Source of the DNA: Escherichia coli
Lineage (GTDB): Bacteria > Pseudomonadota > Gammaproteobacteria > Enterobacterales > Enterobacteriaceae
Length of the DNA stretch: 64,000 bases
Assembly: GCF_003334315.1 (NCBI RefSeq)
Contig: NZ_QOWR01000003.1
Strand: one strand, 5' to 3'
The translations under genes were made by a program, and so were the position numbers. Below the pieces are notes generated by a model. That model did not search any database, was not told the DNA's origin, and saw only the letters and a list, made by a program, of their open reading frames with translations. Positions 56,660 to 57,846 of this stretch are shown piece after piece (position 1 is the stretch's first letter; each line of letters opens with the position of its first letter).

Positions 56660-57846
56660 ATGAAAACCTGGATATTTATCTGTATGTCCATAGCAATGTT
56701 GCTATGGTTTTTAAGTACGCTAAGACGTAAACCCAGTCAAAAGAAAGGCTGTATTGACGCCATTATACCTGCGTATAACGAAGGCCCGTGTCTGGCGCAG
56801 TCACTGGATAATCTACTGCGTAACCCTTATTTTTGCCGGGTAATTTGCGTTAACGACGGCTCCACGGACAATACCGAAGCGGTCATGGCGGAAGTCAAAC
56901 GCAAATGGGGCGACCGCTTTGTTGCCGTCACACAAAAAAATACCGGTAAAGGTGGTGCGCTGATGAATGGCCTCAATTACGCCACCTGCGACCAGGTTTT
57001 TTTAAGTGATGCCGACACCTATGTTCCGCCCGATCAAGACGGAATGGGCTATATGCTGGCAGAAATTGAGCGCGGTGCAGATGCCGTAGGCGGCATTCCC
57101 TCTACTGCGTTGAAAGGCGCGGGTCTGTTACCGCGACCGTAAAGTTGCCGATGATTGTTATGAAGCGCACGCTACAGCAGCTCCTGGGCGGCGCACCGTT
57201 TATTATCAGCGGTGCCTGCGGGATGTTCCGTACTGATGTATTGCGTAAGTTCGGCTTCTCGGATCGTACTAAAGTCGAAGACCTTGATCTCACCTGGACA
57301 TTAGTGGCAAACGGCTACCGTATTCGGCAGGCGAATCGCTGCATCGTATACCCACAGGAATGCAACAGTCCGCGTGAGGAGTGGCGTCGCTGGCGGCGTT
57401 GGATTGTGGGCTACGCGGTCTGTATGCGCCTGCATAAAAGGCTTTTATTTAGCCGCTTCGGTATCTTCAGTATATTTCCTATGCTGTTGGTTGTGATTTA
57501 TGGCGTTGGGATTTATCTCACTACCTGGTTTAATGAATTCATCACCACCGGGCCGCATGGTGTGGTGTTGGCAATGTTTCCGCTTATCTGGATCGGCGTA
57601 GTTTGTGTTATTGGTGCTTTTAGCGCCTGGTTTCATCGTTGCTGGTTGTTGGTGCCTTTAGCGCCGCTTTCCGTTGTGTATGTATTATTAGCTTATGCCA
57701 TCTGGATTATTTATGGACTTATTGCCTTTTTTACTGGACGCGAACCTCAGCGCGACAAACCCACCCGCTATTCCGCACTGGTGGAAGCGTCAACCGCTTA
57801 TTCCCAACCTTCTGTCACAGGAACTGAAAAACTATCTGAAGCTTAA
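56660..57846 (+). pseudogene. yaiP: Family 2 glycosyltransferase YaiP with reading-frame break (two ORF pieces 56660..57142 and 57145..57846)
   Basis: N-piece 160 aa: N-terminal TM helix, GT2 core IIPAYNEGP...VICVNDGSTDNT...FLSDADT; C-piece 233 aa in a different frame: RRWRRW motif and about 4 TM helices; frames overlap 57070-57142, consistent with a 1-nt indel relative to an intact gene of about 395 aa. Confidence 0.6.

Follow-up and report, generated by a model that had tools for sequence, protein, structure and literature searches.

Within the 64,000-nucleotide stretch of Escherichia coli DNA analyzed here (the window), the glycosyltransferase gene yaiP is covered by two open reading frames that lie in different frames. 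The question is whether this strain carries a broken gene, an error in the assembly, or an enzyme that is made in two parts. We conclude, with a probability of about 0.92, that a genuine and vertically inherited 10-bp deletion turns yaiP into a lineage-specific pseudogene.

The two reading frames and the missing bases

The features of yaiP in the window are as follows.

56660-57142, plus strand: yaiP 5' fragment, 160 codons, with an ATG start and a TAA stop at 57140-57142
57067-57069, plus strand: TGA that bounds the downstream frame on its 5' side
57131-57135, plus strand: deletion junction with ten bases missing, from alignments to CP53 and cM2a
57136-57846, plus strand: yaiP 3' part in the native frame, T163 to A398 plus the stop
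57140-57142, plus strand: premature TAA, a product of the frameshift, three codons past the deletion junction
57145-57846, plus strand: downstream mechanical ORF, 233 aa, with a TTG start that is native L166

The 160-codon 5' ORF consists of native YaiP residues 1 to 158, then an out-of-frame R and P, and then the TAA; the N-terminal membrane helix and two motifs, NDGS (D66) and DAD (117-119), are on this fragment. The 3' part carries the GACGMFR (188-194), VED (209-211), and RRWRRW (246-251) motifs and the hydrophobic C-terminal segments (∼264-364). The downstream frame stays open from 57070 to 57846, and the second ORF begins two bases past the stop of the first. An earlier note, made from the letters alone, had taken the two ORFs for one gene, and this reading held: both halves align to annotated yaiP, and positions 56660 to 57846 align over their whole length with annotated yaiP genes of 1197 nt. 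The overlap of about 70 nt that it gave for the two frames, with the second open from 57070, was likewise confirmed, at a computed ∼73 nt bounded by the TGA.

With positions 56660 to 57846 as the query, yaiP matches were found in 4,839 of 5,426 complete RefSeq E. coli genomes, and the best matches covered 1197 nt in the subject versus 1187 nt in the window. CP53 has yaiP as a single 1197-nt CDS for a 398-aa protein (WP_000860438); in cM2a and K-12 MG1655 (b0363) the gene is likewise undivided, with 1197 nt and 398 aa, in agreement with the one polypeptide of about this length that the earlier note had given for K-12. An 84-nt query that spans the junction matched 4,833 complete-genome records, all at 89.4% identity, which corresponds to the 94-nt intact form with the 10 nt present; 5 further records matched only partially. 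Of the ∼4,833 complete RefSeq E. coli records covering the site, 0 had the deletion form. The earlier note had allowed that two ORFs might be the conserved state of reference genomes, or that the gene might follow a different frame path. The two-ORF state was found in none of the complete genomes, and no alternative intact frame path through the yaiP of the window exists. The gene order tauA-yaiS-yaiP-yaiX-yaiO-frmR is common to the window, K-12 MG1655, CP53, and cM2a; the surrounding genes in CP53 and cM2a are tauABCD, yaiS, yaiP, a yaiX-type acetyltransferase gene, yaiO, frmR, and frmA.

Comparison of the window with the CP53 allele located the lesion. Every aligned yaiP base is identical, and the window lacks 10 nt; from 56960 to 57260 the alignment shows full identity except for one 10-column gap. 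Placed leftmost, the bases lost from yaiP are CGCACATCCG, such that the intact DNA reads ...GGTCTGTTAC CGCACATCCG CGCGACCGTAAAG... and the window reads ...GGTCTGTTAC CGCGACCGTAAAG.... Because CGC sits at both edges of the lost segment, the gap can be shifted by up to 3 nt. There are four equivalent positions, gene nt 473-482 through 476-485, and the junction in the window may be drawn anywhere from 57131/57132 to 57134/57135. A 10-nt deletion, with a length that is not a multiple of three, gives a net shift of -1. The intact protein reading ...GAGLLPHIRATVKLPM... becomes ...GAGLLPRP-stop in the window, and at the junction LLP-R-P-stop replaces the ancestral LLPHIRATVKLPM.

A single-nucleotide indel, as the earlier note had suggested, is ruled out by these alignments, in which a lone 10-nt gap accounts for all the difference from the closest alleles. 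The site proposed for it (57134-57144) was nearly the right place, although the true junction is at 57131-57135, and the PRPVKLPM reading that one extra base was expected to restore is not the ancestral one. An uninterrupted orthologue, a non-triplet indel, a premature stop, and a reproducible lesion, which are among the marks of a frameshift pseudogene, were all found.

Recurrence of the deletion in other assemblies

The apparent break might be an artefact: yaiP would be intact in the strain, and assembly or consensus calling would have dropped 10 bases; the lack of any complete RefSeq E. coli genome with the deletion is consistent with this. The exact 160-aa product is, however, indexed on 20 to 27 contigs (NCBI, ENA, and Logan assemblies), and in the sequence index the exact stub has 20 contigs, compared with at least 1000 that carry the intact allele matching it. 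Six carrier contigs from different samples were fetched (SRR3824135, GCA_958326205.1, SRR33442627, SRR14867000, DRR634199, and ERR3393344), which come from SRR, DRR, and ERR runs and from one NCBI assembly; SRR3824135 matches the window at 100% identity over 6.5 kb. All six had the identical junction, and none had the intact motif.

The carrier contigs differ from each other by 0 to 4 SNPs over up to 6.5 kb, and these SNPs are nested. One carrier contig has the CP53/cM2a haplotype plus the deletion, three add 56277A, and the window and one carrier contig further add 54483A, 55602T, and 59670T. This nesting shows that the carriers do not repeat a single data set, and the deletion must be older than those substitutions. 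The SNP pattern indicates that the deletion arose once, on a CP53-like, cM2a-like haplotype, and was then inherited. The window itself shows 18 substitutions over 64 kb relative to the closest complete genome, cM2a, and no homopolymer indels relative to it across the 64 kb. With so few differences and no homopolymer indels, the assembly is not error-prone, and a 10-nt loss in nonrepetitive sequence would be an atypical platform error. We regard an artefact as barely credible; the sequencing error that had been offered as an option is effectively excluded by independent carriers with an identical junction and nested SNPs. Carried by about two dozen independent assemblies and by no complete RefSeq E. 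coli genome that spans the site, the 10-bp deletion is a clean lineage marker.

The sole other length polymorphism in the 64 kb relative to cM2a is an intergenic REP-type repeat near 30.6 to 30.7 kb. In this region (30606-30749, between araJ and mak), the window differs from cM2a by ∼104 nt of repeat copy, a 2-nt indel, and three clustered substitutions (30663-30688). Further along the window, 61720-61827 and 61820-61928 (∼108 nt each) each match the cM2a counterpart of the other at ∼95% identity, and the stretch 61720-61928 looks like a local repeat. For several carrier contigs the sequence stops ∼1.6 kb past window position 60142, near this repeat, and the repeat is probably the reason for these breaks.

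Consequences for the YaiP glycosyltransferase

Intact YaiP belongs to the GT2 family, including its DxD motif. It matches Pfam PF00535 (GT2) over residues 34 to 200 with an E value of 7e-28, wider GT2 models reach residue 310, and in an alignment with a membrane GT2 of solved structure (PDB 6yv7), the DAD at 117-119 pairs with the DxD. Inverting GT2 synthases carry a D, DxD, D, Q/RxxRW signature. The motifs of intact YaiP are at positions 65 (NDGS), 117 (DAD), 188 (GACGMFR), 209 (VED), and 246 (RRWRRW), and its hydrophobic segments are at residues 1-22 and ∼264-364. The break at 158/159 falls within the PF00535 span; the stub keeps the first ∼125 residues of the match (34-158), and the DxD half is parted from the half with ED and RRWRRW and from the C-terminal membrane helices. 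The C-terminal fragment matches only positions 187 to 300 of the PgaC_IcaA profile, and a search for solved-structure homologues of this fragment alone gave no significant match.

We propose that the inherited deletion shifts the frame by -1 and that translation would end three codons on. What remains would be an N-terminal stub of 160 aa, and translation would have no efficient start for the final 236 codons. This would sever the DxD half of the catalytic GT-A (GT2) domain from the half with ED and RRWRRW (QxxRW type), and with a cut inside the domain, between the two halves, the enzyme is predicted to be inactive. The stub would represent the nucleotide-sugar- and metal-binding half by analogy with the family, and the motifs for the catalytic base and the acceptor would lie on the remainder, together with the membrane helices. 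Judged from the sequence, with the break inside PF00535, yaiP is most likely dead. The otherwise intact yaiS-yaiP-yaiX-yaiO cluster would then be broken at the glycosyltransferase step, and polarity on yaiX and yaiO is possible.

The best family-level likeness of intact YaiP is to PgaC/IcaA (TIGR03937; E value 7.5e-29, profile positions 38 to 300 of 407). Both have a membrane helix at the N terminus, a GT-A domain that contains DxD, ED, and an R/QxxRW-like motif, and further membrane helices at the C terminus, and among the neighbors of YaiP, the deacetylase and the outer-membrane barrel loosely recall pgaB and pgaA. The partners of YaiP (PIG-L, an LbH acetyltransferase, and the YaiO barrel) are nevertheless of families unrelated to the partners of PgaC/IcaA. 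On the basis of its profile score, YaiP is a distant synthase-type relative and not a PgaC equivalog, because 100.9 bits falls far under the curated cut-off of 422.3 bits.

The two ORFs could also be imagined to work as they stand, by -1 frameshifting within 57070-57142 or by synthesis of both fragments and their reassembly into an active enzyme. The overlap of ∼73 nt fits the first of these, given that a -1 shift would fuse the frames, and the TTG at 57145 and the ATG at 57151, which lie 2 to 8 nt past the stop, make termination-reinitiation conceivable. However, between 57067 and 57145 there is no slippery heptamer (X XXY YYZ) and no homopolymer of four or more, and no Shine-Dalgarno-like sequence precedes the TTG at 57145, the ATG at 57151, or the ATG at 57160. 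The two-ORF state is derived and rare, with no conservation, and a fused product would lack residues 159 to 162 within the GT-A core or have them replaced. We know of no split GT2 of such a kind. In prfB, dnaX, and the transposases of the IS1 and IS3 families, two overlapping ORFs in different frames likewise cover one protein, but there the slippery sites, stimulators, and two-frame state are conserved, whereas yaiP in the window has no slippery site and is a rare derived allele. With neither a heptamer nor the two-frame arrangement in any complete genome, the locus does not classify as a programmed -1 frameshift. Nor does it classify as a phase-variable locus: the lost 10-mer CGCACATCCG is nonrepetitive, with no homopolymer or short tandem repeat tract, and TRF found no tandem repeat in the intact yaiP region. 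Programmed frameshifting, phase variation, and reinitiation signals were dropped as candidates on these grounds, and a functional split is extremely unlikely.

Low-level termination-reinitiation at the TTG or at the ATG at 57151 might still give a C-terminal fragment, as read from the positions of these codons. Its product would be only the C-terminal half of the split GT-A domain. On the carrier contigs, the gene callers leave the 3' fragment without a called gene.

For the frameshifted pseudogene, the two ORFs should be annotated as one such pseudogene and not as two glycosyltransferase genes, and the strain is expected to lack whatever YaiP makes. According to the EcoGene 3.0 paper (PMC3531124), which cites a 2011 meeting abstract, a repaired K-12 yaiX' promotes clumping in vegetative growth, and YaiP is needed for this; no other functional statements on YaiP were found. 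The expected phenotype of the window allele would be a loss of YaiP-dependent clumping. The allele is a biologically ordinary pseudogene, and its value lies mainly in annotation and as a lineage marker.

Origin of the deletion and other lesions in the cluster

The two CGC triplets, which are 10 nt apart, may have given rise to the deletion, either by slipped mispairing or by microhomology-mediated joining. By our estimate, a random deletion would show microhomology of at least 3 nt ∼5% of the time. A GC-rich inverted repeat with a GCGCGG...CCGCGC stem also extends across the site, but its folding is no more stable than that of shuffled controls (z of -0.24), and hairpin-promoted slippage was dropped as evidence.

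A different origin is suggested by the complete genome of HCP6S3_I1 (NZ_CM149868.1, 2163-3500), in which IS421, of the IS4 family and with IS186-type ends (CATAAGCGCTAACTTAAGGGTTG), lies within yaiP. Its target duplication is 10 bp, GGCTGTTACC, at gene nt 464 to 473. IS186/IS421 activity, through imprecise excision or aborted transposition, could then have left the deletion as a by-product, in place of replication slippage; such an origin would leave the pseudogene reading untouched. The duplication directly abuts the deletion (nt 473-485), and the two are equal in length. A junction-specific search of complete genomes nevertheless found IS421 at this site in one genome only, and the window contains no IS186/IS421 terminal repeat with up to three mismatches allowed, the junction being clean. 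With no IS or IS end at the break, the allele does not classify as an IS-mediated disruption. The deleted 10-mer differs from the duplicated one, and a join made from the IS-bearing allele would have ∼1 nt of microhomology versus 3 nt for simple slippage. The apparent clustering is, moreover, biased, since attention was drawn by truncated products of similar length. An IS origin is very unlikely on this evidence, and the adjacency of duplication and deletion is probably coincidental. A search of the literature on the carriers and on IS186 with yaiP found nothing.

Two contigs (metagenome/SRA) have an independent TTA-to-TGA change at yaiP codon 157 (gene nt 470, locus positions ∼2968-2971). They are on another allele background, with GGG at codon 155; the change lies 3 nt upstream of the deletion and gives a 156-aa product. 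In at least six assemblies, contigs break off precisely at yaiP nt 469 or 470, and no IS sequence is attached to them; they represent two allelic backgrounds, K-12-like ones among them, and the 156-aa partial product occurs in 42 index blocks. Such breaks might reflect an IS insertion that assemblers trimmed off, or a mixed population.

Within 22 nt there are thus the 10-bp deletion, the IS421 insertion, the TTA-to-TGA nonsense change, and the contig ends at nt 469/470. On this basis yaiP nt 464 to 485 might be a mutational or selective hot spot, the deletion being an IS186-family footprint or one of several losses of YaiP-dependent clumping under repeated selection, a proposal to which we give a slender chance.

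Whatever its origin, the pseudogene lies among neighbors that are intact in the window.

55979-56650, plus strand: yaiS, PIG-L family deacetylase, 223 aa, full length, PF02585
57824-58405, plus strand: yaiX-type left-handed beta-helix acetyltransferase, 193 aa in the annotation of relatives, intact
58407-59180, plus strand: yaiO, YaiO-family outer-membrane beta-barrel, 257 aa, intact, TIGR04390 at 184 bits versus a cut-off of 32

A BshB1-type PIG-L model covers residues 19 to 221 of the window YaiS. The K-12 yaiS (2888-3445 of the K-12 locus) encodes 185 aa and has a TAA at codon 186 where the window has CAA; the K-12 gene is therefore the truncated form, and the 223-aa ORF of the window is full length. 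PGAP calls the 223-aa yaiS "incomplete, missing C-terminus" in CP53 and cM2a, in which it also places a 39-aa ykiC-like ORF on the opposite strand at yaiS. The yaiS of the window has a derived S100Y (56277 C to A), which is younger than the yaiP deletion. The yaiX-type gene overlaps the 3' end of yaiP by 23 nt. The acetyltransferase ORF (57695-58405) is open from 57695, 151 nt inside yaiP, and its start differs between annotations: PGAP uses the equivalent of 57824 (193 aa), and the gene caller on the carrier contigs uses 57713 (230 aa).

Lesions of this cluster are also known from other strains. K-12 MG1655 has an IS2 insertion in yaiX, and two dog isolates, Z1323PEC0011 and Z1323PEC0013, have IS1 in yaiP at about gene nt 873; in Z1323PEC0011 (NZ_CP148277.1) IS1A lies within yaiP at 2374-3141. 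YaiP of Shigella sonnei is 358 aa long and ends in ...GDAANLLI, presumably a translation into an IS1 end. The IS1A of the dog isolates and the Shigella sonnei form are further independent disruptions of yaiP. A link between IS1 and the deletion was considered and rejected: the top BLAST matches carry IS1 ∼400 nt downstream, and it is unrelated. The yaiX::IS2 and yaiS stop of K-12, the IS1 and IS421 insertions in yaiP, and the codon-157 TGA are all independent inactivating lesions in yaiS-yaiP-yaiX. They differ from that of the window in site or type; the latter is a small deletion, with yaiS, yaiX, and yaiO intact. It adds one more case to the decay of the poorly characterized yaiS-yaiP-yaiX-yaiO cluster, and the set of lesions shows repeated loss and gives mild evidence that the cluster is dispensable in many niches.

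Elsewhere in the window, an uninterrupted 987-aa autotransporter ORF of the yaiT type is found at 47383-50346 on the minus strand; in several related complete genomes, the yaiT-type autotransporter gene contains an IS3-family insertion.
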